DNA from: an uncultured Planctomycetota bacterium
GTDB taxonomy: Bacteria; Planctomycetota; PUPC01
Direction: 5' to 3'
Assembly (NCBI GenBank): GCA_964385685.1
Contig: CAYLQD010000063.1
Location: forward strand, 1-22,031
Length of the DNA: 22,031 nt
Part shown: positions 2,820 through 22,031 of the stretch, one piece after another
Layout: every line of letters starts with the position of its first letter
Position numbering within the stretch: position 1 is the stretch's first letter
Program-made: the position numbers and the translations under genes
The notes under the pieces: generated by a model
Told to the model about the DNA's origin: nothing
Seen by the model: the letters and a program-made list of their open reading frames with translations, nothing else
The model's database searches: none

Positions 2820-3425
2820 CTACGCGTAGTCGGTGGCTCTGTCAGGACGCTCGGCGCCGGCAATCGCGCCAAGGACGAAGCCGCGAAGGAAGCACGCAAA
2901 GAGCCACGCCTCGGCTTCACTGAAAGGATTCTCGGCGCCGGCGAAGGCAATGCCCCCGTGTTGGGTCACGTATTTCCTCGGCCTCTTTGTGTCCCGCATC
3001 AACTCATGCCCGACCTCGTGGGCGATGATTGCGAAGAACTTGGCCTGTGCTCTTTTGGCCCGCTTATCATCGTTGGCGGCCTCTCGCAGGATCTCGGCGT
3101 GGATGTCCTTGTCAATAACGATGGTCGGCTTGGCCCCCTTCTTGAGTATCGCAAGCCAGGAAACGTACCCACGAATGGGCAAGAGTTGGTCCGATACTGG
3201 AAGCCAGCTATCGATGGAAGCTTGCCTAGCTATGGACGTCCGCAGGCGCACAGGTCTCAGCCAGTCCCACGGAGCGAACGGTTCGTCGCGATGATACGTC
3301 TCGCCGACGACAAATTTGTGCGCCGCGTGCATGGCTCGGGCAACCGAACCGCGACCCTCGAGTTTCTTGAAGGTCTTAATCCATGCGTCGCGTTTGGGCG
3401 CGACGGGATCCGGCTTCCGAGTCAC
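2820..3425 (-). CDS. ImmA/IrrE-family (COG2856-like) HExxH zinc metallopeptidase
   Basis: 201 aa. Contains ...KRAQAKFFAIIAHEVGHELMRD..., i.e. an HExxH motif in the F-x-h-AHE-h-GH context typical of ImmA/IrrE peptidases, followed about 30 residues later by a Glu-rich helix (AENPFSEAEAWLFA) as expected for the third metal ligand. GTG start at 3425 is preceded by GGGGAG 5 nt upstream. The stop TAG of the upstream gene (3436-3438) overlaps this Shine-Dalgarno site, implying translational coupling. Confidence 0.6.
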   Translation of the reverse strand: MTRKPDPVAPKRDAWIKTFKKLEGRGSVARAMHAAHKFVVGETYHRDEPFAPWDWLRPVRLRTSIARQASIDSWLPVSDQLLPIRGYVSWLAILKKGAKPTIVIDKDIHAEILREAANDDKRAKRAQAKFFAIIAHEVGHELMRDTKRPRKYVTQHGGIAFAGAENPFSEAEAWLFACFLRGFVLGAIAGAERPDRATDYA

Positions 3426-3435
3426 TTCTGCTCCC

Positions 3436-3855
3436 CTACTCAGGAAACTGGTTCAGACACTCGGCGATGTAGTGAAGGTGGACGACGGCTCGCTCGAAGG
3501 AGGGTTGGTCCGGAGGAATCTCAACCGGGTCTGGCCTCGACGCAGCTGCATACAGCCCAATCCCGTCCTTGCGCAGCTCTTCAAAGACCCGATGTATCTC
3601 AGAGTCAGGAATGTCAGGATCGAGAGGAAAGAGTTGATCGAGTCCAATACTGAGCACGACTCCGAGGATTTCAAGTTCGGCGGATCGAAAGACTTCCTTG
3701 GCTGTCTTGAGTCGTTGCAGGCGAGTTGGCTCAATACCGGCCAAATAATCCACCCGTTCATCCGTGACTCCAAACTCCTGCTGGGCTCCGTCCACCAGAG
3801 CGGCGAACTCAGCGGACTTTTCTGCGACGTCAATGCGTTTTCTGAATGGCGTCAT
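3436..3855 (-). CDS. hypothetical 139-aa protein, upstream partner of the ImmA-like peptidase; no obvious helix-turn-helix
   Basis: The track ORF 3436..3933 begins at a TTG. The internal ATG at 3853-3855 (MTPFRKRIDVAEKS...) is preceded by GGGAGCGG at a 7-nt spacing, so I prefer that start. Acidic, helical-looking sequence. Near the C-terminus lies ...ERAVVHLHYIAECL (an R-x5-H arrangement). G+C is lower than in the flanking DNA. Confidence 0.5.
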   Translation of the reverse strand: MTPFRKRIDVAEKSAEFAALVDGAQQEFGVTDERVDYLAGIEPTRLQRLKTAKEVFRSAELEILGVVLSIGLDQLFPLDPDIPDSEIHRVFEELRKDGIGLYAAASRPDPVEIPPDQPSFERAVVHLHYIAECLNQFPE

Positions 3856-4489
3856 TTGTCCGCTCCCAGCAGAATCGAGTGTTTGGAAACGAGTGTTCAG
3901 TAGCGGTTTCTTACGCAGCAAATCCCATGCCAAGAGCAGGTGGCGCCGGAGGACAGTTTCTTAACCACTTCTCCTGTAAGCGGATAGAGCTTGCCGAATT
4001 CCTTGGATATCTACTACGCTGCACGCGCGAGTGTTTCCGTGGGTCAACATGAACCGGCTCCAGCGTTGCCAGGGAACAACAGAGAACCAACGGAGTCACG
4101 GTGCAGGAAATTCGCCACAGAGCATCGGGGGGTTGACAAGGCCAAGGCTGACTGTCTCCCGGACATGCAGGCGAAGAATCTGGGGCCGACCGTCGCTGCA
4201 CGTATGTTTAGGATTACGCTAATCTTATCCTCCAGCCGGCGCCTGTCAAGAACAAAATCGCAGGTACTTGCGCACGCTCTCTTGAAACGTATATCGTCAT
4301 GAAAACGGACATTCTTGAGAGCAAAGGGCTTCGGGGTGGAGCGAGGTCATCGGTCGCTCCAAGCCCGCTGCCCCGACAAGATCGGCGCGCCGCGTCTGCC
4401 AGAGGCCGGACGGCCTGCTCGCGCGGCGCGGTGTGGGGCGTCGTTGATGCCGGGGAGCGCGGCGATCAGGTCGTTCTTGATGTGGGGCC

Positions 4490-5533
4490 TCAGCGCCCGA
4501 CGGTTTTGACGCCGGTTTTCTCGCTGGGGTCTTCGATCTCTTCGACGATGTTGTGGCCGGAGCCGAAGAGCTTCTTGCGCTGCTCTTGGGCGTCGCGCCA
4601 CTCCTCAGGACTGTACGTCTGGCCGGGCTGGGCGAACTCCGCGCGCTCGCTCCGCGGCGGGACGGGCCGCTCCTCGGGGCCGTCGTAGTCCTCCTTCGGC
4701 GTCAACTCCTCGCCCAGCCGCGTCGTGCCGTCGCGCTCGACTTCCTCGATGTAGTGGGCGCCGGCGGCGAACGAACGCGCGACGGCCAGGATGGCCCACG
4801 TCGCCTCCGGGCTGAACCCCAGGTCCATCATGACCGCGCCGGTCGCTCCGAGCATGTCGATGTCGACCGGCTCCGCGCTCGCCGCCTGCGCGGCCTTGAC
4901 GATCTCGTGCAGGAAGGCGACGTGCCGGCCCGCGACGCCGAGCGTCTCGGCGCGCGCGACCAGCCGCTTCGCGGCCGGGTCCCGCAGCATGAGGTCGGAG
5001 ACGCCGAGCGCCTCGCTGTCGAGGTTCTCCGCGACGAGCGCGGTCGCCATCTCCGCGGGCGTCTTGCCCTCCTCGCCGGCCCGCGCGAGATAATCGCGGA
5101 GCATGTTGCCGAAGGCCGAGAAGGCGCCGTAGGCGTGGCCGAACGCGAGGACGGACGCGCCGCAGGCCTGCGTGAGGAAGGTCTTCGAGCGGGCGACGAT
5201 CCGCGACATCGCGGCCGGCATCGACATCCCGTCCTCGAGCCCGAGGAGCATGACGCAGTTGAGCATCTGCTCCTCCTCGACAAGCGGGATCCGCGCCTGG
5301 AAATCGACGAAGAGGATGTCGACGAGCCCGTAGCCGCGCTCGACCAGCTCGGTCGTGTCGTAGCCGCGGGCGACGATGCGGTGCACGTTCTTGTAGGCGA
5401 TCTCCGAGACCCACCGGAACGGCTTCCGCTTCGTGTCCGGCGGGACCGTGCCAACTTCGCGCGTCGAGTAGTCGTAGGGCAGCCGCTCGTCGTCGAGGTT
5501 CCCGATGACCTTGTCGTCGTCTAGATGACCCAC
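4490..5533 (-). CDS. citrate synthase-family protein (divergent; citryl-CoA-lyase-like size), paralogue 1
   Basis: The region ...FRWVSEIAYKNVHRIVARGYDTTELVERGYGLVDILFVDFQARIPLVEEEQML... matches the conserved citrate-synthase N-terminal signature (t-IS-iDg..g.L.YRGY.I.dL.e...feEv.yLLl.G.LP...E). A later segment, AFGHAYGAF... LGVSDLMLRDPAAK, resembles the GFGH-x-VYK-x-DPRA region, but Ser replaces the catalytic His. The track ORF 4490..5752 carries an R/P-rich N-terminal run-in. I place the start at the GTG at 5531-5533 (VGHLDDDKVIGN...), with GGAAGGAG 10 nt upstream, overlapping the stop of the upstream paralogue by 13 bp. Confidence 0.5.
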   Translation of the reverse strand: MGHLDDDKVIGNLDDERLPYDYSTREVGTVPPDTKRKPFRWVSEIAYKNVHRIVARGYDTTELVERGYGLVDILFVDFQARIPLVEEEQMLNCVMLLGLEDGMSMPAAMSRIVARSKTFLTQACGASVLAFGHAYGAFSAFGNMLRDYLARAGEEGKTPAEMATALVAENLDSEALGVSDLMLRDPAAKRLVARAETLGVAGRHVAFLHEIVKAAQAASAEPVDIDMLGATGAVMMDLGFSPEATWAILAVARSFAAGAHYIEEVERDGTTRLGEELTPKEDYDGPEERPVPPRSERAEFAQPGQTYSPEEWRDAQEQRKKLFGSGHNIVEEIEDPSEKTGVKTVGR

Positions 5534-10868: not shown

Positions 10869-12260
10869 TCACACCCGTCGCCGTCTGCGGCTGATCCCCA
10901 CCAGCCCAATCAGCCCCAGTCCGCCCGGCTCGGGGACGGGCGGGCGGGTGGCCGGGATGAGCCACAAGGTGAACCCCGGATTCGTCAGCCGGAGCTGGCC
11001 GAGCGGGAAGAAGCGGTCGTAGAGACAGAGCAGCGGGGTCGTGTCCCATTCGTCCGGCTGCAGGTGGTCCATCCAACTCGCGTAGAGGGCCGAGTTCAGC
11101 TCGACGGGCGGCAGGGCCTCGGCCTCGAAGTCGAAGACGAGCACGTTGCCGGGATTGCCGACCTCCGTGAACGTGAACCGCGGCATCACGGGGAGCGTGG
11201 CCTGATACGTACCGCCGTTGATGTGCGTCCGCGTCGCGGTCAGCTCGCCCTGCTGTTGCGTCGGGCTCAGATCGACAGACACGTCGAACTCCACGTCGCC
11301 TCCCGGCATGCCCGTGACGACGATCGGATCGGTGGACTGGAGACTGAGCGCGACGATCTCGATGGGAGTCGTGTCCATGTCGCCGACGCGAGGCAGGTTG
11401 AGTTCACCCGCCCGCGCGATGAGTGTGTCGGTCGAATCGTAGGGATCGGGCGCCGCGGCGTCGGCCGGCACGCCGCCGTCGAACGGATCGGAGCCGGGGC
11501 CGAAGAAGCCCGCGGGAATGGCCGGCACACCGCCCTTGCCGAACTCGACCTGGCACTGGACCGTCTCGTGGCACATCCAGCCGTCGATCGTCGCGCCGCA
11601 GATCGGCAGCAGGCACTCCTGAACGGGATTCTCGTACACGCCGTCGTATCCATCGAGCGGGCCGCCGACCGCTCCCTCGAATCCGGTCATGTATGAGATG
11701 TCGAAGGAGCTGTCGACGTTGTAGTCCCCGTCCGGCAGCTTGGTCAGCGTGACCTGGCCGAGGCACGGCGTGCCGTAGTTGCTCCCGGCGACGTACCAGA
11801 AGCTCTGGAAATTTGGGTCGGGCGGCGCGCCGCCCTCGAGCACGAGCAGGTTCGTGTCGAACGTCTGGACCGGGGCGCCCAGGGTCCGCGGCCCGGCGTG
11901 CGCGCCCATGAAGCCGTTGGCGTCGATCATGCCGCTGAAGCCGGCGAGGTCCCCGAGGCCGATGACGTCGAAATCGGCGTCGCACTGGACCGTCCCCTCG
12001 CATTCGCCGTCCAGCCCGGTGAATACCTCCTGGAAGTTATGGCAGTCCGACAGATCGAGGTCGCACTCGAGTTCCCAGTCGGGCGGCGGGACGGAATCGG
12101 CGCCGAACGTGATCCCGGTCATGTACATCGGGATCGTGATCAGGTCTTCGAGGTTGACCGTTCCCGTGCCGTCGTCGGGCGCGGTCGGCCCGGCCGCCGC
12201 TGGCGCCGCCAGCGCCATCGCGACTGTGACGCCCAATGCTGTCCGCATTATCATCCTCAT
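10869..12260 (-). CDS. PEP-CTERM sorting-domain protein 1 (Cys-rich secreted protein)
   Basis: Signal peptide MRMIMRTALGVTVAMALAAPAAAG. The C-terminus, ...PVPEPGGLGLIGLVGISRRRRRV*, carries the full PEP + hydrophobic helix + Arg-cluster signature of exosortase substrates. An AAAGGGGG Shine-Dalgarno site lies 7 nt before the ATG. Confidence 0.75.
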   Translation of the reverse strand: MRMIMRTALGVTVAMALAAPAAAGPTAPDDGTGTVNLEDLITIPMYMTGITFGADSVPPPDWELECDLDLSDCHNFQEVFTGLDGECEGTVQCDADFDVIGLGDLAGFSGMIDANGFMGAHAGPRTLGAPVQTFDTNLLVLEGGAPPDPNFQSFWYVAGSNYGTPCLGQVTLTKLPDGDYNVDSSFDISYMTGFEGAVGGPLDGYDGVYENPVQECLLPICGATIDGWMCHETVQCQVEFGKGGVPAIPAGFFGPGSDPFDGGVPADAAAPDPYDSTDTLIARAGELNLPRVGDMDTTPIEIVALSLQSTDPIVVTGMPGGDVEFDVSVDLSPTQQQGELTATRTHINGGTYQATLPVMPRFTFTEVGNPGNVLVFDFEAEALPPVELNSALYASWMDHLQPDEWDTTPLLCLYDRFFPLGQLRLTNPGFTLWLIPATRPPVPEPGGLGLIGLVGISRRRRRV

Positions 12261-14492: not shown

Positions 14493-14561
14493 CTCCTTCC
14501 CTCCTTTCACAAGTTTCACGTCCGGCCAAGTACCATCCGCACTCATTTCCTTCTTCTCAGC

Positions 14562-14588
14562 GCCTGCCCTGAGCCACGTCGAAGGGCC
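14562..14588 (-). repeat. ~27-nt recurring motif (sense GGCCCTTCGACGTGGCTCAGGGCAGGC), copy A. Other copies at 15704-15731 (B), 20106-20132 (C, inside the gene 8 coding tail) and 18968-18988 (D, inverted, overlapping the gene 7 stop)
   Basis: Near-identical strings read directly from the sequence. Contains an internal GCCCT...AGGGC stem. In copy C the same nucleotides encode the ...ALRRGSGRALGRKGRRR* tail of protein 8. In copies A and B the equivalent frame would read ALRRGSGQAL(R/K).RR(K/R) followed by a stop. Confidence 0.55.
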
Positions 14589-14604
14589 AGCATCGCGATT
14601 CTGC

Positions 14605-14720: not shown

Positions 14721-15641
14721 CTACGAAAGGGCCGCCCGCCTCCTCCTCCGCAGCAGCAGGAGGGCCGCTATCAGCCCGAGCCCCGCGGGCTCGTGGACGG
14801 GCTCGCCGGCCAGGAAGTGGCCCGACTCCGACGTCCACGTGACGCCCTCGGGCACCTGCACCGGGCCGAGCGTTACGGTGTGGTGGTAGTGGACGCCCAA
14901 ATGAATCCCGCTCATGGCCAGCGGGTCCGGATTGACCCCCGCCGTCTCGGCGTCGGCCTGGATGGATGCGCTCATGTCGAACTCGGTAACCTTCTCGGTG
15001 TAGGAGAAGAAGGGCTCGATCGTCGTCCGTAGCTCGCCCTGCGTGTTGACCGTTCTGCCGCCGGGCGCCTCCACCAGGTCGACGATGTCCTGGAACGTCG
15101 TGATCCCGAGCGCCAGCCGCACCTCCGCGAGCAGGGCAAACCCCGTCACCGGCGGGCCGCCCGGATCCTGGAGAAGGGCCTCGACAAGGCCGGTGATCGT
15201 GTATGGAATCACGACGTCGACGCCCTCGGGATAGTTGCCCGGCGGCGTGGTGATGAGCAGCTTGTCGCGCATCTCCACGAACGAACTGGCGGTCACTCTC
15301 GACCAGCCGCCGGGGTATGCGGCGTTCTCAATGGCGGCGTATGCCCCCATCTCGGCCGTCCGCAGGTCGACAAGCCCATAGCCCTCGGCGATGTCCCCTT
15401 CAACCCCGGCGAGCGTGCCGTCGCCGACGAGGGTCGGCTCCTGGCTGAACTCCATCTCGTCGATAAACTGAATCTCTCCATCCGGGCCCGGGTCGACCTC
15501 TAGGTACATCATCCGCGAGGTGACGTGGGTCGTCTCGGCCACCGCGGCCGACGCGCACCAGGCGAGCACGGCGATCGCAACCGCCGCCGCGCAGCACGCC
15601 AGTGGCCGCAGCGGTCTTCCTGTGTTCCGCTCGTTCCTCAT
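14721..15641 (-). CDS. PEP-CTERM sorting-domain protein 3 (paralogue of protein 4)
   Basis: Real start MRNERNTGRPLRPLACCAAAVAIAVLAWCASAAVA, with its ATG at 15639-15641 preceded by GGAAGGAGGAGGaca. The track ORF extends to 15782 through the upstream motif. C-terminus ...HEPAGLGLIAALLLLRRRRRAALS*. Confidence 0.7.
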   Translation of the reverse strand: MRNERNTGRPLRPLACCAAAVAIAVLAWCASAAVAETTHVTSRMMYLEVDPGPDGEIQFIDEMEFSQEPTLVGDGTLAGVEGDIAEGYGLVDLRTAEMGAYAAIENAAYPGGWSRVTASSFVEMRDKLLITTPPGNYPEGVDVVIPYTITGLVEALLQDPGGPPVTGFALLAEVRLALGITTFQDIVDLVEAPGGRTVNTQGELRTTIEPFFSYTEKVTEFDMSASIQADAETAGVNPDPLAMSGIHLGVHYHHTVTLGPVQVPEGVTWTSESGHFLAGEPVHEPAGLGLIAALLLLRRRRRAALS

Positions 15642-15657
15642 TGTCCTCCTCCTTCCC

Positions 15658-15674
15658 GGCGCCCCCTTGGCGCC
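15658..15674 (-). promoter_or_regulatory. leader hairpin GGCGCC-ccctt-GGCGCC immediately 5' of the Shine-Dalgarno site of PEP-CTERM gene 3 (member of a recurring element)
   Basis: GGCGCC is self-complementary, so GGCGCC-N5-GGCGCC forms a 6-bp stem with a 5-nt loop. It lies roughly 1-6 nt 5' of the GGAGGAG-type Shine-Dalgarno site in the mRNA sense. Other copies: 16738-16754 (gene 4, loop gttgc), 20825-20841 (gene 8, loop gttgt), 21549-21565 (gene 9, loop gttgt) and a variant GCGCC-gcgcg-GGCGC at 17471-17485 (gene 5). Confidence 0.5.
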
Positions 15675-15812
15675 CGTCCCGTTCAACGCCTCCTCGTCTT
15701 CAACGCCTGCCCTGAGCCACGTCGAAGGGCCATCATCGCCAGCCGCGCGACGGCAACGCCGTCGCGTTGGCAGAATGGCCAAGAAGCCATTCGGCCAGCG
15801 GCCCGCTCGTGC

Positions 15813-16721
15813 TCAGCGTCTCTTTCTTCGCAGCAGCACGAGGGCCGCCATCAGTCCGAGCCCCGCCGGCTCTGGAACGGGCTCGCCGGCCAGGAAGAAG
15901 CCCGACTCCGACGTCCACGTGACGCCCTCCGGCACCTGCAGCGGCCCGAGCGTCACCGTGTGGTCGTAGTAGACGCCCAGATCGATCCCGCTCGCGGCCA
16001 GGGGATCCGGATCGACCCCCGCCGTCTCGGCCTGGGCATCGATGTACGCGGCCATGCCCATCTCGGTGACCTTCTCGGTGTAGGAGAAGAAGGGTTCGAT
16101 CGTCGTCCGCAGCTCGCCCTGCCGGTTGACCGTCACGACGCTCGGCGCCGACACCAGGTCGACGATATCCTCGAACGTGGTGATCCCCAGCGCCATCCTC
16201 ACCGCCGCGAGCATGTTGAACCCCGTCACCGGCCCGCCGAGCGGGTTCTGGAGGTCGGCCTGGAGAACGCCGGTGATCTGGTACGGGATGATGACGGGGA
16301 CTCCATCGGGGTAGTTGCCCGGCGGCGTGGTGATGAGCAGCGTGTCACGCATCTCCACGGACGAGCTGGCGGTCGCGCTCGACCAGCCGCTGGGGTACGA
16401 GGCGTTTTGGATGGCGGCGGACGCCCCCAGCTCGCCCGTCCGCAGGTCGACGCGCCCCTGGCCCTCGGCCATGTCGCCTTCGATCCCGGCGAGCATGCTG
16501 CCGCCGATCAGCATCGCTTCGTGGCTGAACACCGTCTCGTCAACGAACTGGAACTCGCCGTCCTCGCCCGGGTCGACCTCCAGGTACATCATCCGCGAGG
16601 TGATGTGGACTTGCTGCTGAGCCGCAGCGGACGCGCACCATGCGAGCAGGGCGATCACAACACCCGCCGCGCAGCACGCCAGCGGCCGCAGCGACCCTCC
16701 TGCATTTCTTCCGTTCCTCAT
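15813..16721 (-). CDS. PEP-CTERM sorting-domain protein 4 (paralogue of protein 3)
   Basis: MRNGRNAGGSLRPLACCAAGVVIALLAWCASAAA...PVPEPAGLGLMAALVLLRRKRR*. Same leader and Shine-Dalgarno site as gene 3. Extensive identity to gene 3 is visible at the DNA level. Confidence 0.75.
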   Translation of the reverse strand: MRNGRNAGGSLRPLACCAAGVVIALLAWCASAAAQQQVHITSRMMYLEVDPGEDGEFQFVDETVFSHEAMLIGGSMLAGIEGDMAEGQGRVDLRTGELGASAAIQNASYPSGWSSATASSSVEMRDTLLITTPPGNYPDGVPVIIPYQITGVLQADLQNPLGGPVTGFNMLAAVRMALGITTFEDIVDLVSAPSVVTVNRQGELRTTIEPFFSYTEKVTEMGMAAYIDAQAETAGVDPDPLAASGIDLGVYYDHTVTLGPLQVPEGVTWTSESGFFLAGEPVPEPAGLGLMAALVLLRRKRR

Positions 16722-16762
16722 TGTCCTCCTCCTTCCTGGCGCCGTTGCGGCGCCCGTTATGC

Positions 16763-17455
16763 CTACCGCCTTCTTCTTCTCGCCGTAATCATTGCCAGCC
16801 CGAGCAAGCCGAGGCCGGCGGGCTCGGGGATGGGCGGGCCGGCAGTCCGGATGTCGGAAAGGACGTACGTCCCGACGCCATTGTTGATTCCGAAGGTGAC
16901 GTAGAGCGCATGGGCGAAATCGGTCGGGCCGGCGATGAAATCGCTGTACAAGAACTCGTAGACGCCGGGGCCCGTGATGTGATGCGTAAGCTCCGAGTCG
17001 TTCACTGCCATGTCGCTCACCTTGGTGACCATGCTGTCCATCGGCCCGGCGCCGTCGGCTCGGGTCAAGGTGACCAGAATGCGGTCGTGCTGCCCGCCTT
17101 CCGTGAGGTCGACGTTGTTCAGGCCGGCTTGGCCCACGCCGTCGTAGAAGAACGCCGCGAGCGCTCCGCCACCATCGCCGGTGTTGTTGAACGCAATGAT
17201 CGTGGCGTCTGGGTCCGGTGTCAGTTGCAGGTCGGCGGTCACGGACGCAGTTGGCGCGCTACCCGCGTTGAGCGAGACCTCCCGCTCGGTGCCGACGATG
17301 CTGCTTGCCGGGCCCGTCTGGATGTCGGTGTTCGTCCCCGGGTGGCTCAGCGAAAACGGCCCCTCTTCGAAGTCATCAATCACGACCGCTTTGGCCGGCG
17401 CCGCCAACAGCACGACGACGGTACAACATAGCATCACGATCCCCGTCTTTGTCAT
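16763..17455 (-). CDS. PEP-CTERM sorting-domain protein 5 (about 230 aa)
   Basis: Start MTKTGIVMLCCTVVVLLAAPAKA (ATG at 17453-17455, with GGAGGAG 8 nt upstream). C-terminus ...PIPEPAGLGLLGLAMITARRRRR*. The track ORF over-extends to 17521. Confidence 0.7.
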   Translation of the reverse strand: MTKTGIVMLCCTVVVLLAAPAKAVVIDDFEEGPFSLSHPGTNTDIQTGPASSIVGTEREVSLNAGSAPTASVTADLQLTPDPDATIIAFNNTGDGGGALAAFFYDGVGQAGLNNVDLTEGGQHDRILVTLTRADGAGPMDSMVTKVSDMAVNDSELTHHITGPGVYEFLYSDFIAGPTDFAHALYVTFGINNGVGTYVLSDIRTAGPPIPEPAGLGLLGLAMITARRRRR

Positions 17456-17495
17456 CTTGTCCTCTCCTCCGCGCCGCGCGGGCGCTTCAGCTGCG

Positions 17496-18842
17496 TCACC
17501 TCCTTCGCCGTATGAATCCAAGCATCCCCAGGCCGATCAATCCCAGAGCGCCCGGCTCGGGAATGATGAGGTCTCGCATGGCCGACGCGTGCGACGAGAT
17601 CGCGGCGAGGGTCGATGCGTCGGTGTCGTAGACCGAATACCAGCCGGGCGTTTCGTGCGGCGGGTCGCCGATCCACTGCGGGACCGGATCGCCCGGGCGG
17701 CCCTCGCCGCCCCACGCCCAGAAGTTGTCGCCCGCAGCCGACCCGCCCGACGACGCGGACGCATAGACCGCGTCGAACATCGCGGCGTAGAACGCGTCGC
17801 GGTGCGACGTCGGCGCGGCCGGGTCGTGGTGGTCGGGCCCGGTCCAGCCGTCGCGCGCCAGGCCGAACTCCTCGAGCACAACGGGCTTGGCGAGGATGTT
17901 GAGCGCCTCCTGCTCGTGGGTCTGGAAGTAGGCGAGCGCCTGGGCTTCGGCCGCGGCGTAGGTTGTGGGATCGGTCGGGTTGTACCAGCCCCAGTTCTCC
18001 GGCCAGATGTGCGTCGTCGCGTAGTCGATCTTTTCGCCGTTGTGCGTCTCGACGAACGTCCGGTCCTCCCATCCGGCGAGCCACGTCTCGGCGCCGGTCT
18101 CGCCCTCGAAGCCGGTCGTCACGAGGTGGTTGGGATCGAGCGACTTGATGTACGCGGCGGTGTCGTCGATCCAGTCGGCGGGGAACCGCCGCGGCTCGTT
18201 GGCCAGCTCCCACGCGAAGATGGTCGGGTCGTCTTTGTACGCCTCCCCGTTCACGGTGTTGACGCGGCCAACGACCTCGTCGATGTGGTCGCGGAACCAC
18301 GTCTGGCACTGCGCGTTCGTGTAGAACTGCGCGCTGTAGTTCTGGAACGCGTTCCAGTCGCCGGGATAGGGGATCGATCCGCCGATATCCCACTGAACGT
18401 ATTGGGCCATGCCGCCGGACCAGTGCCAGAAGTTGTTGAGGACCATCACGGCCCGCATGTCGCGCTGGTTCATCTCGTCGAGCAGGTGGTCGAGCCCGCC
18501 GAAGACGGCCGGGTTGTAGACGCCGGGCGCGGTCTGGAGCGACGGGACGGCGCGGTAGGGCTCTGTGTCGGGTCCTTCGGAGCCGGCCAGGATGCGCAGG
18601 TTGGTGATGCCGGCGGCCTGGAGGCGGTCGAGTTCGCGGCTGAGGCGCGCGCGGTTGCCGTCTGGGCCGACGACGCCGAGGTTCATCCCCTGCCAGAGGT
18701 TCGCGCCGACGAAGTTGTAGGGCTGTCCGTCGAGTTCAAAGGCCACGCCGTTGACGGCGACGAACCCGAAGTTGTCGGCCCGCGCCATTACCGCCGAGGC
18801 CAGCAGCGCCCCGGCGATGACTATGGATAGACACTTGCTCAC
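17496..18842 (-). CDS. glycoside hydrolase family 5 endo-beta-mannanase-like enzyme carrying a PEP-CTERM sorting tail
   Basis: Signal peptide MSKCLSIVIAGALLASAVMARA (GTG start, with GGAG 9 nt upstream). It has ...IFAWELANEPR..., the GH5 catalytic-acid NEP motif in the WELxNEPR context typical of GH5 mannanases. It also has ...KPVVLEEFGL..., the nucleophile E in a TEFG-like context. C-terminus ...IIPEPGALGLIGLGMLGFIRRRR*. Confidence 0.65.
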   Translation of the reverse strand: MSKCLSIVIAGALLASAVMARADNFGFVAVNGVAFELDGQPYNFVGANLWQGMNLGVVGPDGNRARLSRELDRLQAAGITNLRILAGSEGPDTEPYRAVPSLQTAPGVYNPAVFGGLDHLLDEMNQRDMRAVMVLNNFWHWSGGMAQYVQWDIGGSIPYPGDWNAFQNYSAQFYTNAQCQTWFRDHIDEVVGRVNTVNGEAYKDDPTIFAWELANEPRRFPADWIDDTAAYIKSLDPNHLVTTGFEGETGAETWLAGWEDRTFVETHNGEKIDYATTHIWPENWGWYNPTDPTTYAAAEAQALAYFQTHEQEALNILAKPVVLEEFGLARDGWTGPDHHDPAAPTSHRDAFYAAMFDAVYASASSGGSAAGDNFWAWGGEGRPGDPVPQWIGDPPHETPGWYSVYDTDASTLAAISSHASAMRDLIIPEPGALGLIGLGMLGFIRRRR

Positions 18843-18983
18843 TGTAGTGACTCCGGCCAGGGAATCACGCCGCGCAAGGCGCGCCGCATCCTCTCATTGC
18901 GGCCCCCGAGGGGCCGTTCTCGATCTGTTCCACCCGCCCAAGCGGGTGCTCAGCTTCTTTTGCGTCGCCGCCCTTCGACGGGC

Positions 18984-19907
18984 TCAGCGTCTTCGCTGCC
19001 GCTTCGACAGCCCGATCGCTGCCAACCCGAGGAACCCGAGCCCGGCCGGCTCGGGGATGATGGTGAGGTCCAACGCAACGCCCCCCGGGCCCGAAAGCCC
19101 CGTCACGACGTCCTCGGCGTTGCTGCCGTCGAGATCCGCGCGCTGGATCGAGTTCAGGTCGCGATCGGCCCAGTACATCTTGCCCGCGGCCACGTCGAGC
19201 GCGATCCCACGGGGGTTCGGCTGCGACACCAGAAGATCCTCGACGTTGCTGCCATCGAGGTTCGCACGCTGGATCTTGTCCGTTGCGAAAGCCGTCCAGT
19301 ACACCTTGCCGCCGGCAGGGTCCACCGCGATCCCCCAAGCGTCCTCAATTCCGCTGCTCACCAGGGTCTCGACGTTACCGCCGTCCAGATCGGCGCGCCT
19401 GACCAGGTCGTCAGCACCCGCACCCTGCTGCTCGACCCAGTACATCTTGCCGTTGGTCAGGTCGAGGTCGATGGCAACGGGGACCAAGAGGCCGGTCGTT
19501 ACGAGGTTCTCCACGTTGCTGCCATCGAGGTCCGCGCGTCGGATCGCGTCCGCCCACGCCTCGGTCCAGTAGACCTTGTCCGCGGCCAGGTCGAGCGCGA
19601 CGCCCGCCGCGCCATCGGCGCCGGTGATCAGGTCCTGGACGTTGCTGCCGTCCAGATTCGCGCGCTGGACCTTGTCTGCGAGCTCGTCCGCCCAGTACAT
19701 CTTGCCCCCGGCACCATCCAGCGAGATTTCAGCCGGGACGTCCAGCCCTGTCGTTACCAGGTCCTCGACGTTCGAGCCGTCCAGGTCGGCGCGCTGGATC
19801 TTGTGCGCGTCATGGTCCGTCCAGTACACCTTGGCGGCCTGTGCGCGCGGCGCCGCGAACACCGCGACGCAAACCGTCACCACCAAACCCACGATTGCCT
19901 TCCTCAT
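18984..19907 (-). CDS. six-bladed YWTD (LDL-receptor class B-type) beta-propeller protein with a PEP-CTERM tail
   Basis: Six ~42-aa repeats of the form K(V/M)YW(T/A)D....IQRA(D/N)LDGSNVEDLVT.GL..P.GIALD. Start MRKAIVGLVVTVCVAVFAAPRAQA (ATG at 19905-19907, with GGAGG 8 nt upstream). C-terminus ...TIIPEPAGLGFLGLAAIGLSKRQRRR*. The track ORF over-extends to 19976. Confidence 0.65.
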   Translation of the reverse strand: MRKAIVGLVVTVCVAVFAAPRAQAAKVYWTDHDAHKIQRADLDGSNVEDLVTTGLDVPAEISLDGAGGKMYWADELADKVQRANLDGSNVQDLITGADGAAGVALDLAADKVYWTEAWADAIRRADLDGSNVENLVTTGLLVPVAIDLDLTNGKMYWVEQQGAGADDLVRRADLDGGNVETLVSSGIEDAWGIAVDPAGGKVYWTAFATDKIQRANLDGSNVEDLLVSQPNPRGIALDVAAGKMYWADRDLNSIQRADLDGSNAEDVVTGLSGPGGVALDLTIIPEPAGLGFLGLAAIGLSKRQRRR

Positions 19908-20077
19908 CTCTCCATCCTCCAAAAGGTTCCTCTGCTTCAACACCACGCAGGCGACCGCCGCCTGCGTCCGCTCCAACTCACCAGCGCCAGGCCGATGAGC
20001 CCAGCCCCCTTCGTCGTCGATTGGCTCGCATCACCTCCTTTCCGCGGGCGGCGGCTGTCATCCGGCCCGCCCGTCTC

Positions 20078-20806
20078 TCAGCGCCGTCTCCCCTTTCTTC
20101 CCAGTGCCCGTCCTGAGCCCCGTCGAAGGGCCAGCGCCGCCGGCCCGATCAGAGCCAGCCCGGCCGGCTCGGGGACGACGGGCGGTGGCGGGACGCCGTC
20201 ACCCGTTATCACAAAGGCGAGGTCGAGCGACTCGGCCGTGATCAGGTCGGGGTAACTCGATACGTCGGCGGTCTTCCAGCCCCAATTGCCGTGGGCAGCC
20301 GTCACGGAGATCCCCAGCCAGTAGGTGGTGCCCTCCTCCTGGAAGAACGGATCGGCGATGTTCGCAACGTTGTATTGATAGCACTCGGTATGGTCGTGCT
20401 GAGCGTAGTTACCCGAGCCCGGGTCGAACCAGCCCTGGTCGCCCGTACCGTAGAAGCGTTCCGCCCATTCCCCTGGGTAAAGGTCGCGCTGCCAGAGCAG
20501 GACGTCCGGTTTGCTCTGGTCATCCGCGTAGATGCTGAGGCGGATCTCGGAGAGCGTGCCCACAGTGTCGCCCTTCCATGAGCCCCAGAAATGGATGTCC
20601 GTGACCGGTCCGCTCGCCGTGCACGTCCAGTCGTCGGCCAGGACCGTGTCACCATACGCGGCCACGTCCCAGCCGTTCAGGTCGGGCAGTTGCGGAAAGT
20701 GCATCTTATGCCCGTCGCCGGGGTCCCAGTCGGCGCGGGCCGCCGCAGCGACCAACGCAACGGCCGCGAGCACAACCGCCGCTCCGCCGATAGCCTTCGT
20801 CTTCAT
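20078..20806 (-). CDS. PEP-CTERM sorting-domain protein 8 with an unusually extended basic tail
   Basis: Start MKTKAIGGAAVVLAAVALVAAAARA (ATG at 20804-20806, preceded by the GGCGCC hairpin and a GGAGGAG Shine-Dalgarno site). C-terminus ...VVPEPAGLALIGPAALALRRGSGRALGRKGRRR*. The track ORF over-extends to 21025. Confidence 0.65.
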   Translation of the reverse strand: MKTKAIGGAAVVLAAVALVAAAARADWDPGDGHKMHFPQLPDLNGWDVAAYGDTVLADDWTCTASGPVTDIHFWGSWKGDTVGTLSEIRLSIYADDQSKPDVLLWQRDLYPGEWAERFYGTGDQGWFDPGSGNYAQHDHTECYQYNVANIADPFFQEEGTTYWLGISVTAAHGNWGWKTADVSSYPDLITAESLDLAFVITGDGVPPPPVVPEPAGLALIGPAALALRRGSGRALGRKGRRR

Positions 20807-20850
20807 CGTGCTCTCCTCCTTCTTGGCGCCGTTGTGGCGCCTGTTTGTCC

Positions 20851-21532
20851 TCAGCGTCTCTTCGTTCTCAGCCCGACGAGCGCCAGGCCGAGCAGGCCCA
20901 GGCCGGCGGGCTCGGGGATAGCAGGGCTCGCGGCCACCTGTGTGACGCTCAACGCGCTCCACGACCGGTCGATCGGCCAGCCGAAATCCCAGCGGGCATA
21001 CAGCCACGAGCCGTCCGTGAGCCACATGTAGATTCCGTTGGAACCAGCGTTGTAGTCCGCACTTTCAGGGACATGCGGGCCGGGACCGGTGCTGCCCCAA
21101 TCCCCAGCTGTGCCTGCCGAGCCCTCGGACCCGATGTACTGGTGGTTCGTGCCGAAAGCCCCGACCCACGGGATGTCGGCCTCCATGGTAGTCCTCGCCG
21201 CCGGCGCCGTGGAAGCAGCTTTCGATGGGCTGCCAGTCATTACCGCCCGCCGTCGGGTCGAAGAACTCGATGGTGAACAGTTCGGTGGTTGTCGGAACGC
21301 CGGGGCCGCTCAGTTCCCAGTAGACGCGGCGGACGCCGTCCATCGTATTGGCCCCCCAGGCGCTGGTGCCGGCGTATCCGGCGCCCGCGTATTCAGTCCA
21401 GCCGGAGCCCACAAGGTGGTCGACCGGCAGGACCCAACTGTCCCCGACTCCCGCCAACGCAGCGCTGCACGAGAAGAACAGAGCGGCCGCCGCCACCGCA
21501 CCACACAACGTCCAATATCCCATCTTACTCAT
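20851..21532 (-). pseudogene. PEP-CTERM sorting-domain gene 9 disrupted by an apparent +1 frameshift near 21175-21195 (pseudogene or sequencing error)
   Basis: The 5' part (track ORF 21065..21532) opens with a good signal peptide, MSKMGYWTLCGAVAAAALFFSCSAALAG. It reads as protein up to ...EFFDPTAGGNDWQPIESCFHGAGGEDYHGG and then becomes Arg/His-rich junk. The 3' part lies in the frame of ORF 20851..21240 and reads ...ADIPWVGAFGTNHQYIGSEGSAGTAGDWGS...WDFGWPIDRSWSALSVTQVAASPAIPEPAGLGLLGLALVGLRTKRR*. The two frames differ by one nucleotide around ccatggaggccgac. Confidence 0.55.
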
Positions 21533-21574
21533 GACGCTCCTCCTCTCCGGCGCCGTTGTGGCGCCTGCTTGCTC

Positions 21575-22031
21575 TCAGCGTCTCTTGTTCCTCAGCCCAA
21601 CGAGCGCCAGCCCGATCAACGCGAGCCCTGCCGGCTCGGGAATCGGCGGCGGCTCTCCACCATGCGCATTGATGACGAGCGAAGTCGCGGCGGTGAAGGA
21701 CGCAAGGTTGTGATCTTGGTTGACGTATGCCGGCGCAACGCCGCCCGTGCTGCTCGGAACCGACGGCCCAAGCGAGATCGTGATATCGCTGGCGGGCGCA
21801 GAGATAATCGCCTGGTACGTCGCCAGCAGGAGCGGCTCCGGCACGGTGGGCAGCGGAGTAGTCACGGCGAGGAAGACGTTGTTGCCCGATCCGATGTTGA
21901 GCGCGCCCGGCGGGAGGACGCGGTCCAGAACGATGCCGGGGGCCGCCAGCAGCTCGGACGTGTCGATGCTGAACTCGTAGCCCCGCACCCCCGTGTCACC
22001 GGCCGGGAATCCGTCGGCGACGACATAGAAA
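21575..22031 (-). CDS. PEP-CTERM sorting-domain protein 10 (5' end beyond the window)
   Basis: The frame stays open upstream of the listed GTG at 21988 to the window edge (...FYVVADGFPAGDTGVRGYEFSIDTS...). C-terminus ...PPPIPEPAGLALIGLALVGLRNKRR*. Confidence 0.65.
   Translation of the reverse strand, partial: FYVVADGFPAGDTGVRGYEFSIDTSELLAAPGIVLDRVLPPGALNIGSGNNVFLAVTTPLPTVPEPLLLATYQAIISAPASDITISLGPSVPSSTGGVAPAYVNQDHNLASFTAATSLVINAHGGEPPPIPEPAGLALIGLALVGLRNKRR

Follow-up and report, generated by a model that had tools for sequence, protein, structure and literature searches.

A clade-specific stem-loop at the PEP-CTERM gene junctions of an uncultured planctomycete

PEP-CTERM Array and Its Recurring Hairpin

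The element described here is a short hairpin, in its exact form GGCGCC-N5-GGCGCC, which stands immediately upstream of the ribosome-binding sites of five PEP-CTERM genes in a stretch of DNA from an uncultured Planctomycetota bacterium (contig CAYLQD010000063.1, positions 1–22,031; this whole stretch of 22,031 nucleotides is called the window). The hairpin belongs to a repeated gene junction that recurs in related contigs, where its arms look selected and its loop and linker do not. It is a clade-specific junction stem-loop without a named family, and it is of a familiar kind, that of the intercistronic or 5′ untranslated region (5′-UTR) stem-loops. Tentatively, it may be a boundary and stability element of the translation-initiation region of each cistron.

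The window is included in a 23.7-kb metagenomic scaffold (SUTE22-1_SAMN10231894_METAG-scaffold_5081) with a G+C content of about 67%. Ten genes on the minus strand, between window positions 10869 and 22031, end in PEP-CTERM-type tails, which consist of a PEP motif, a hydrophobic stretch, and an Arg-rich end. The PEP-CTERM domain model of NCBIfam, TIGR02595, scores above its cutoff in four scanned open reading frames (ORFs), namely g5, g6, the second half of g9, and the gene upstream of g9; in the remaining array genes the tail is recognized by eye only. The g8 product contains Pfam DUF7901, with homologs carrying the source names Planctomycetota or Phycisphaerae at 41–48% identity and a closest homolog at 54%, and g3 and g4 are paralogs in tandem that share 74% amino-acid identity. 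The genes of the array probably form a single transcription unit.

The exact motif occurs four times in the window (15658–15674, 16738–16754, 20825–20841, and 21549–21565), for a chance expectation of 0.06, and none of 100 shuffled sequences reached four. The fifth copy, at g5 (17470–17486), is a two-mismatch variant with a 5-bp stem. All five copies lie on the minus strand, just 5′ of the ribosome-binding sites of g3, g4, g5, g8, and g9. The original prediction of one leader shared by five genes therefore stands for four exact copies, but the fifth is degenerate; likewise, the stem is kept while the loops differ, as it had proposed, but the g5 loop is not among its three listed loops. The spacing between the hairpin and GGAGGAG, given there as 1–5 nt, is in fact exactly 5 nt in the four exact copies, in which ATG follows after 4–6 nt. 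The g5 copy has 2 nt between the hairpin and GGAGAGG. The distance from the preceding stop codon to the hairpin is 9 nt for g8 and g9, close to the roughly 10 nt predicted, and also 9 nt for g5; it is 8 nt for g4 and, counted from the stop codon of a fossil tail, 8 nt for g3. The five leaders are listed below in the order of transcription, with the scores of R1, a covariance model built from eight junction hairpins.

21530–21577, minus strand: junction between the gene upstream of g9 and g9; stop codon TGA 21577–21575, 9-nt linker gagcaagca 21574–21566, hairpin GGCGCC-acaac-GGCGCC 21565–21549, ggaga, GGAGGAG 21543–21537, cgtc, ATG 21532; R1 49.7 bits, stem pairing probability 0.65
20804–20853, minus strand: junction between g9 and g8; stop codon TGA 20853–20851, 9-nt linker ggacaaaca, hairpin GGCGCC-acaac-GGCGCC 20841–20825, aagaa, GGAGGAG 20819–20813, agcacg, ATG 20806; R1 46.1 bits
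17453–17498, minus strand: degenerate junction between g6 and g5; stop codon TGA 17498–17496, linker cgcagctga, hairpin AGCGCC-cgcgc-GGCGCG 17486–17470, ga, GGAGAGG 17467–17461, acaag, ATG 17455; R1 32.5 bits
16719–16765, minus strand: junction between g5 and g4; stop codon TAG 16765–16763, 8-nt linker gcataacg, hairpin GGCGCC-gcaac-GGCGCC 16754–16738, aggaa, GGAGGAGG 16732–16725, aca, ATG 16721; R1 50.1 bits, stem pairing probability at least 0.97
15639–15685, minus strand: leader of g3; stop codon TGA 15685–15683 of a fossil PEP-CTERM-like tail, 8-nt linker acgggacg, hairpin GGCGCC-aaggg-GGCGCC 15674–15658, gggaa, GGAGGAGG 15652–15645, aca, ATG 15641

The folding energy of the exact hairpins is about −11.5 to −12.8 kcal/mol, and that of the g5 copy is −7.9 kcal/mol. 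In a 120-nt context, the predicted pairing probability is 0.65–1.0 in the four exact copies, and the Shine–Dalgarno sequence (SD) next to them is predicted to be unpaired with a probability of 0.76–0.91. Between g3 and g4, the stems are identical at 12 of 12 positions and the loops at none of five.

The Junction as the Repeated Unit

The repeated unit is the entire gene junction of 40–48 nt, with the tight junctions of the window measuring 40–44 nt. Its order is the stop codon, an A-rich linker of 8–9 nt, a hairpin of six G/C pairs around a 5-nt loop, 5 nt, GGAGGAG, 3–8 nt, and ATG. The linker contains 36% A and 4% T, in a context of 67% G+C. The junctions of g8 and g9 form a direct repeat of 107 nt with 80% identity (D8), which extends from the ribosome-binding site back into the tail of the preceding PEP-CTERM gene. 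The similarity between g3 and g4 (D7) runs instead from the hairpin forward into the gene, and the g3 leader takes part in both D7 and a further repeat, D9. These repeats indicate that the recurring unit is the junction, comprising the tail, stop codon, linker, hairpin, and ribosome-binding site, that it has spread partly by duplication, and that the hairpin is not an independently inserted element.

Remnants of junctions are also found in the spacers of the array. A 49-nt repeat is present in three copies with 82–88% identity (window 14548–14596, 15691–15739, and 20092–20140) and encodes the tail-like peptide ALRRGSGQAL...RRR followed by a stop codon (PFDVAQGR in the other frame). One copy, at the C-terminus of g8, is in frame; the other two are fossils in the g4–g3 and g3–g2 spacers, where a hairpin, GCGACGGC-gtt-GCCGTCGC, precedes each fossil copy (near window 15763 and 14621). 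The g8–g7 spacer holds a fossil mini-gene (window ~19908–20077) composed of a short hairpin, aaa, GGAGG, and tgATG, the start being fused directly to a remnant of a PEP-CTERM-like tail, GAGLIGLALVSWSGRRRR. The mini-gene resembles what a deletion would leave of a former array gene, which suggests that the array is recombinationally dynamic. The leader of g7 itself carries a 7-bp hairpin, GCAGGCG-gcggt-CGCCTGC (window 19947–19965, minus strand), about 35 nt before the ribosome-binding site, and the SD context of g7, ttttGGAGGatggagagATGAGGAAG, is kept in related contig L172 before gene 348.

Conservation in Related Contigs

Homologs of the g4 and g5 proteins are rare (6 and 9 proteins, respectively). 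They led to the related contigs L163 (27 kb, with a syntenic nine-gene array), L164, L165, L166, L167, L171, L172, and L173. The junction is present in L163, L164, L165, L166, L167, and L173, whose proteins are 60–84% identical to g4 or g5, in the following forms.

L163, before gene 10001: GGCGCC-gcgac-GGCGCC-ggaaa-GGAGG
L163, before gene 13188: GGCGCC-gcgtc-GGCGCC-ggaga-GGAGGAG
L163, before gene 8230: GGCGCG-gcgtc-GGCGCC
L166, before gene 721: AGCGCC-cgcgc-GGTGCG, ortholog of the g5 junction, with a G·U change that keeps the stem
L167, before gene 388: AGCGCC-cacgc-GGCGCG, ortholog of the g5 junction, with a loop change and the stem kept
L164, L165, and L173: expanded or register-shifted forms of the junction

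Among the tight PEP-CTERM junctions of the clade (40–49 nt), 12 of 13 have this architecture and 10 of 13 a stem of at least 5 bp. In the 22-kb window, the matches of R1 with E < 0.01 are the five PEP-CTERM leaders only, and the model recovers further leaders in the relatives. An orphan copy is found at L163 7436–7470, 9 nt past a stop codon; a G·U pair keeps its stem, its SD has decayed, and the SD of the next gene lies 50 nt further. Across about 55 kb of sequence from the clade, the hairpin occurs in PEP-CTERM junctions only, so that the specificity for PEP-CTERM leaders claimed at the outset holds in the sequence available.

The degree of conservation differs between the segments of the junction. 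The mean pairwise identity of each segment was determined for 11 copies and for the window against L163.

5′ arm: 87% among all 11 copies, 92% between the window and L163
3′ arm: 90% among all 11 copies, 100% between the window and L163
SD: 79% among all 11 copies, 82% between the window and L163
Loop: 42% among all 11 copies, 47% between the window and L163
Linker: 37% among all 11 copies, 43% between the window and L163
5-nt gap: 58% among all 11 copies, 55% between the window and L163

The loop has diverged to near the level expected of unrelated G+C-rich sequence, though it is flanked by both arms. The arms thus look to be under purifying selection about as strong as that on the SD, with the loop and linker apparently drifting freely. 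Intact arms beside a diverged loop and linker therefore point to selection and not to shared ancestry alone. Gene conversion or recent duplication is weakened as a cause because it would have homogenized the loops and linkers too.

A scan of a genome collection for GGCGCC-N5-GGCGCC-N5-GGAGGAG gave at least 118 scattered single matches in unrelated G+C-rich taxa, none of them at PEP-CTERM genes among the matches listed; this listing does not bear on the source genome. A scan of a metagenome collection that does not hold the source contig, using GGCGCCRCAACGGCGCC-N1-8-GGAGG with the loop fixed as RCAAC, gave 36 unrelated matches, none at PEP-CTERM genes. Such matches to the arms and SD resemble chance. 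The proposal of a regulon-wide motif is thus not borne out by the collection scans, which covered the arms with a downstream GGAGG(AG), one of them with the RCAAC loop, and gave no PEP-CTERM match among the matches listed; judging from these scans, the literal GGCGCC motif is not a widespread family. In the distant loci with DUF7901 homologs (L004, L006, and L007), an adjacent hairpin accompanies only one of six PEP-CTERM leaders, and the feature is therefore considered clade-specific. The clade also contains a PEP-CTERM junction without a spacer (L166 ~40–75), in which ATGA combines the stop and start codons and the tail codons of the upstream gene contain the ribosome-binding site; the hairpin junction is therefore not the clade's only solution.

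RNA Structure or Literal Sequence

Three observations bear on whether the structure or the sequence of the element is maintained. First, at least six different perfect stems, GGCGCC included, end 3–6 nt before GGAG in PEP-CTERM leaders of the clade. The stems other than GGCGCC, which in the clade stand in leaders with no upstream gene close by, are listed here together with one from a distant locus.

CCGAGCG/CGCTCGG: leader of the first gene in the present array, just beyond the window
CCGGC/GCCGG: leader of the first array gene in L163
CGCCC/GGGCG: L163 and L164, in leaders of the g3 family
CGCCGC/GCGGCG: L164
GGGGC/GCCCC: L167
CGCGGG/CCCGCG: distant locus L004

A strict criterion was applied to all planctomycete loci analyzed, namely a perfect Watson–Crick stem of at least 5 bp with a loop of 3–9 nt, whose end lies 1–6 nt ahead of a GGAG between positions −20 and −5. 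Such stems are found in 14 of 30 PEP-CTERM genes of the clade and in none of 49 other genes (Fisher p ~2e-7, a value that overstates the case as the copies are not independent, diverse though the stems are). Among the genes that possess a GGAG, the counts are 14/24 for PEP-CTERM and 0/19 for other genes. The generic folding energy of positions −28 to −10 relative to the start codon hardly distinguishes PEP-CTERM genes from the others (Mann–Whitney p = 0.05), because G+C-rich DNA folds everywhere.

Second, the two single substitutions seen in stems (L166 before gene 721 and the L163 orphan) are both C-to-T changes, which give a G·U pair only in the sense transcript; no G-to-A change was seen. 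Third, seven hairpins adjoin an SD without a nearby upstream stop codon, versus one, the orphan, which lies past a stop codon without a functional SD. This favors a link of the hairpin to the SD more than to the stop codon. Taken from sequence comparison, the diverse stems at the same place, the C-to-T changes, and the SD linkage favor selection for an RNA structure. Formal covariation is weak, with a score of 0.095 versus 0.056 in shuffles for an alignment fitted to the model, and 4 of 500 shuffles reach this score.

Proposed Role of the Stem-Loop

The stabilizing stem-loops of bacterial mRNA include the 5′ hairpin of Escherichia coli ompA, the intercistronic hairpins of the Rhodobacter puf operon, and the repetitive extragenic palindromic (REP) sequence between malE and malF. 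The reshaping of operons by programmed decay is the topic named in the title of PMC5927463. The element at the PEP-CTERM junctions resembles these stabilizers as a short stable stem-loop in an intercistronic or 5′-untranslated position, with a free ribosome-binding site, adjoining an A-rich single-stranded stretch that is a candidate endonuclease site, in an array of many same-strand genes. In contrast, its stem has only 6 bp, its distances of 5 nt to the SD and 8–9 nt to the stop codon are fixed, and it is confined to the PEP-CTERM gene class of one uncultured planctomycete clade. A stable intercistronic or 5′-UTR stem-loop conserved in relatives, as in the stabilizer type, is found in at least six related contigs.

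On this likeness, a role as an intercistronic or 5′-UTR element that marks the boundary of each cistron's translation-initiation region and lends it stability is regarded as plausible, somewhat short of probable. The element would act at the level of the sense-strand mRNA. An endonuclease would cleave the polycistronic transcript within the linker, which is the junction's sole A-rich single-stranded stretch, and the hairpin would come to lie close to or at the 5′ end newly formed on the downstream cistron. The hairpin would then shield this cistron from 5′-end-dependent decay and leave the purine-rich region from the SD to the start codon unpaired. It could also slow 3′ exonucleases on the upstream cistron.

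The hairpin is predicted not to hide the SD and would not be a ligand sensor. An SD-sequestering riboswitch or RNA thermometer was rejected, as the SD is predicted to be unpaired and has no CCUCC-like partner. A CsrA/Rsm site and a guanidine-II (mini-ykkC) riboswitch were rejected as well, since there is a single hairpin without a GGA or ACGR loop; the loops seen are acaac, gcaac, aaggg, cgcgc, gcgac, and gcgtc. The statement that the feature maps to no named family agrees with a search of the window against Rfam 15 with cmscan at E up to 5, which gave only a spurious microRNA match at 19536–19607, and a literature search for a hairpin in PEP-CTERM leaders found none. REP sequences and bacterial interspersed mosaic elements (BIMEs) are likewise repeated intergenic palindromes in same-strand clusters; unlike them, the junction hairpin is much shorter, is fused to the SD at fixed spacing, and is found only at PEP-CTERM junctions in the sequence available.

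Several points weigh against a stabilizing stem-loop. The sample comprises about ten contigs from a few related uncultured organisms, and many of the copies are paralogous. The loss of the stem from orthologous leaders had been named in advance as the result that would count against the element; the stem is conserved in most tight junctions, and it has decayed in the intact junction L163 6697–6740 (GGTATC...TATGTG), is weak in L173, and is absent from L171 and L172, which carry g5 orthologs without a close upstream gene. It is also absent from the conserved g2-type leader. The g5 copy has a predicted pairing probability of only 0.24. Covariation is weak: 93.8% of the cells of the model-fitted alignment are paired, and a double-sided change is seen in two pairs only. 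Most copies retain the literal GGCGCC, which would also suit sequence-specific recognition. Finally, a role as an insulator that keeps the SD free was rejected, as disruption of the stem in silico changed SD accessibility inconsistently.

If a stabilizing role is true, the arrays of exosortase-sorted surface proteins in this uncultured planctomycete lineage would be built from a selected standard junction. Such a junction would be a modular part of natural origin between cistrons, in a phylum of high G+C content whose RNA biology has hardly been explored by experiment, and it would offer a concrete sequence in which to look for control of mRNA processing or stability in PEP-CTERM genes. The element would add no new class of mechanism, being tiny, clade-restricted, and similar to known intercistronic stem-loops.

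Alternative Explanations

The junction repeat could be a passive relic, spread by tandem duplication and recombination, with a functionless hairpin. The tandem paralogs g3 and g4 and the 107 nt shared at 80% by the g8 and g9 junctions, preceding tails included, agree with this, as do the fossil junctions and deletion relics of a recombinationally dynamic array, the decay of the hairpin in some junctions, and the failure to find the exact sequence at PEP-CTERM genes elsewhere among the matches listed. However, the arms are 87–100% identical and the loop and linker about 40%, near saturation, even where the orthologs are only 60–68% identical; neither neutral drift nor gene conversion would give such a contrast, and other leaders have unrelated stems at the same position. 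A relic is therefore judged unlikely.

The main functional alternative is a role at the level of translation, in which the hairpin would tune, or uncouple, termination and reinitiation from one cistron to the next, or would position the SD by docking on the 30S platform. The class-I junctions are fixed at 8–9 nt from the stop codon, one ribosome footprint, and at 5 nt to the SD, and the SD and first codons are purine-rich and predicted to be unpaired. Across the window and related loci, strong GGAG-type ribosome-binding sites are found in nearly all PEP-CTERM genes (27 of 29), compared with 19 of 48 other genes. The chance of this role is nevertheless rated as small: SD-adjacent hairpins also occur without the end of an upstream cistron, at first array genes and in long spacers, and the stop-codon geometry is therefore not general, while the fixed geometry may simply come from the common descent of a module of fixed length.

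A partial terminator, attenuator, or 3′-end barrier for the upstream cistron, which would create an expression gradient along the array, is a comparably doubtful proposition. As in Rho-independent terminators, a G+C-rich stem follows soon after the stop codon, here at 8–9 nt, and the L163 orphan persists past its stop codon despite a decayed SD. Unlike in such terminators, there is no U tract, the next SD follows within 5 nt, and the hairpin also stands before first array genes. A canonical form of the terminator or attenuator suggested in the original prediction is unlikely, as the bases after the stem are those of a purine-rich ribosome-binding site (ggagaGGAGGAG, GGAGAGGAGGAG, and similar). 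An intrinsic terminator was rejected also because a terminator scan flags none on the gene strand and the hairpin lies in gaps of 40–44 nt between same-strand genes, not at the end of a unit. Furthermore, g7, g8, and g3, which are followed by long spacers, have no hairpin at +9 and carry longer hairpins of 7–8 bp; in long spacers a separate, stronger hairpin precedes the SD-adjacent one; and the last array gene ends with a different hairpin, GGGCGG..CCGCCC, with a pyrimidine-rich tail.

More speculative still is a dedicated control point of the PEP-CTERM regulon, for which the odds appear poor. An RNA-binding factor or a specific ribonuclease would read the GGCGCC stem and match the output of each cistron to exosortase capacity, and the literal GGCGCC would be conserved rather than covarying because such a factor recognizes the stem. 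Alternatively under this proposal, the junction would serve as a homology or recombination unit for cassette shuffling.

It is quite improbable that the element acts as a DNA-level site, with two palindromic GGCGCC hexamers 11 bp apart binding a regulator or forming a sigma-54-type promoter of the GG-N10-GC kind. The literal GGCGCC is conserved and does not covary, and the spacing equals one helical turn. In Aquincola, PEP-CTERM genes are RpoN-dependent, and pepA has the site TGGCAC-N5-CTGCTT (PMC9850573). The junction motif likewise lies upstream of PEP-CTERM genes and contains GG-N10-GC, but it agrees with the sigma-54 consensus TGGCAC-N5-TTGCW at only 6 of 11 specified positions, has palindromic arms, and lies too close to the SD and start codon, so that a sigma-54 promoter was rejected on consensus score and geometry. 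Judging from that geometry, a transcription start about 12 nt past the GC would fall inside the SD. Good sigma-54-like matches are found upstream of whole arrays instead (11/11 in L173 and 10/11 in L163). A binding site on DNA is further opposed by the other stem sequences that replace the motif at the same position, by the G·U-type substitutions, which preserve only an RNA structure, and by the 40-nt junction, which is too short for a separate promoter and leader.

A recombination site of the integron-attC kind for cassette shuffling, or a weak terminator of antisense transcription, is the least credible explanation: the window and L163 arrays do differ in gene order, and there are fossil junctions, but the palindrome has 17 nt and lacks the architecture of attC (an imperfect palindrome of 57–141 bp with core sites and a nearby integrase), with no integrase or recombinase domain in the contig ORFs that have Pfam scans or precomputed Pfam hits (several ORFs are without any Pfam hit), and, although the A-rich linker is T-rich on the opposite strand and a terminator-like signal is flagged for one copy on the plus strand, the T tracts are weak (3–5 T in 9) and the scan found 4 against 3.1 in shuffled sequence.

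Sequences Upstream of the Arrays

Sigma-54-like sites precede the first array gene in three related contigs.

L173, 408–423: TGGCAC-aaatc-TTGCT, 11/11, 87 nt before the first array gene
L163, 5596–5611: cGGCAC-gcttc-TTGCA, 10/11, about 285 nt before the first array gene
L171, 6–21: sigma-54-like site, 9/11, about 285 nt before the first array gene

Such sites upstream of whole arrays would fit a single upstream promoter and co-transcription, which is offered as a suggestion. A further site with 10/11, TGGCAT-gggat-TTGCT, lies in a low-G+C stretch of the window (3932, minus strand), and a gene of L004 contains a chance match with the same score. A sigma-54 activator gene is located near the DUF7901 genes of L007, and in L163 a gene for an extracytoplasmic function (ECF)-type sigma factor and a gene of 460 codons (3377–5265 together) stand directly upstream of the PEP-CTERM array.

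A 6-bp dyad is found 50–225 nt upstream of the first PEP-CTERM array gene in four contigs, namely at L001 170–185 (about 212–227 nt past the high end of the window), L163 5807–5822, L171 227–242, and, by eye, L173 ~265–285. The source contig has it as GGCAAC-N4-GTTGCC and the relatives as GTTGCC-N4-GGCAAC, with every pair flipped. Searched as a pattern in about 150 kb of planctomycete loci, L173 not included, it appears at the L001, L163, and L171 sites only.

Within the array, g9 (window 20851–21532, minus strand) is frameshifted. About 115 codons are read in frame 0 and the rest in frame +1, over 682 nt in total, with the shift near 21190–21240 and the PEP-CTERM tail in the second frame. The sequence is the same in three independent assemblies.

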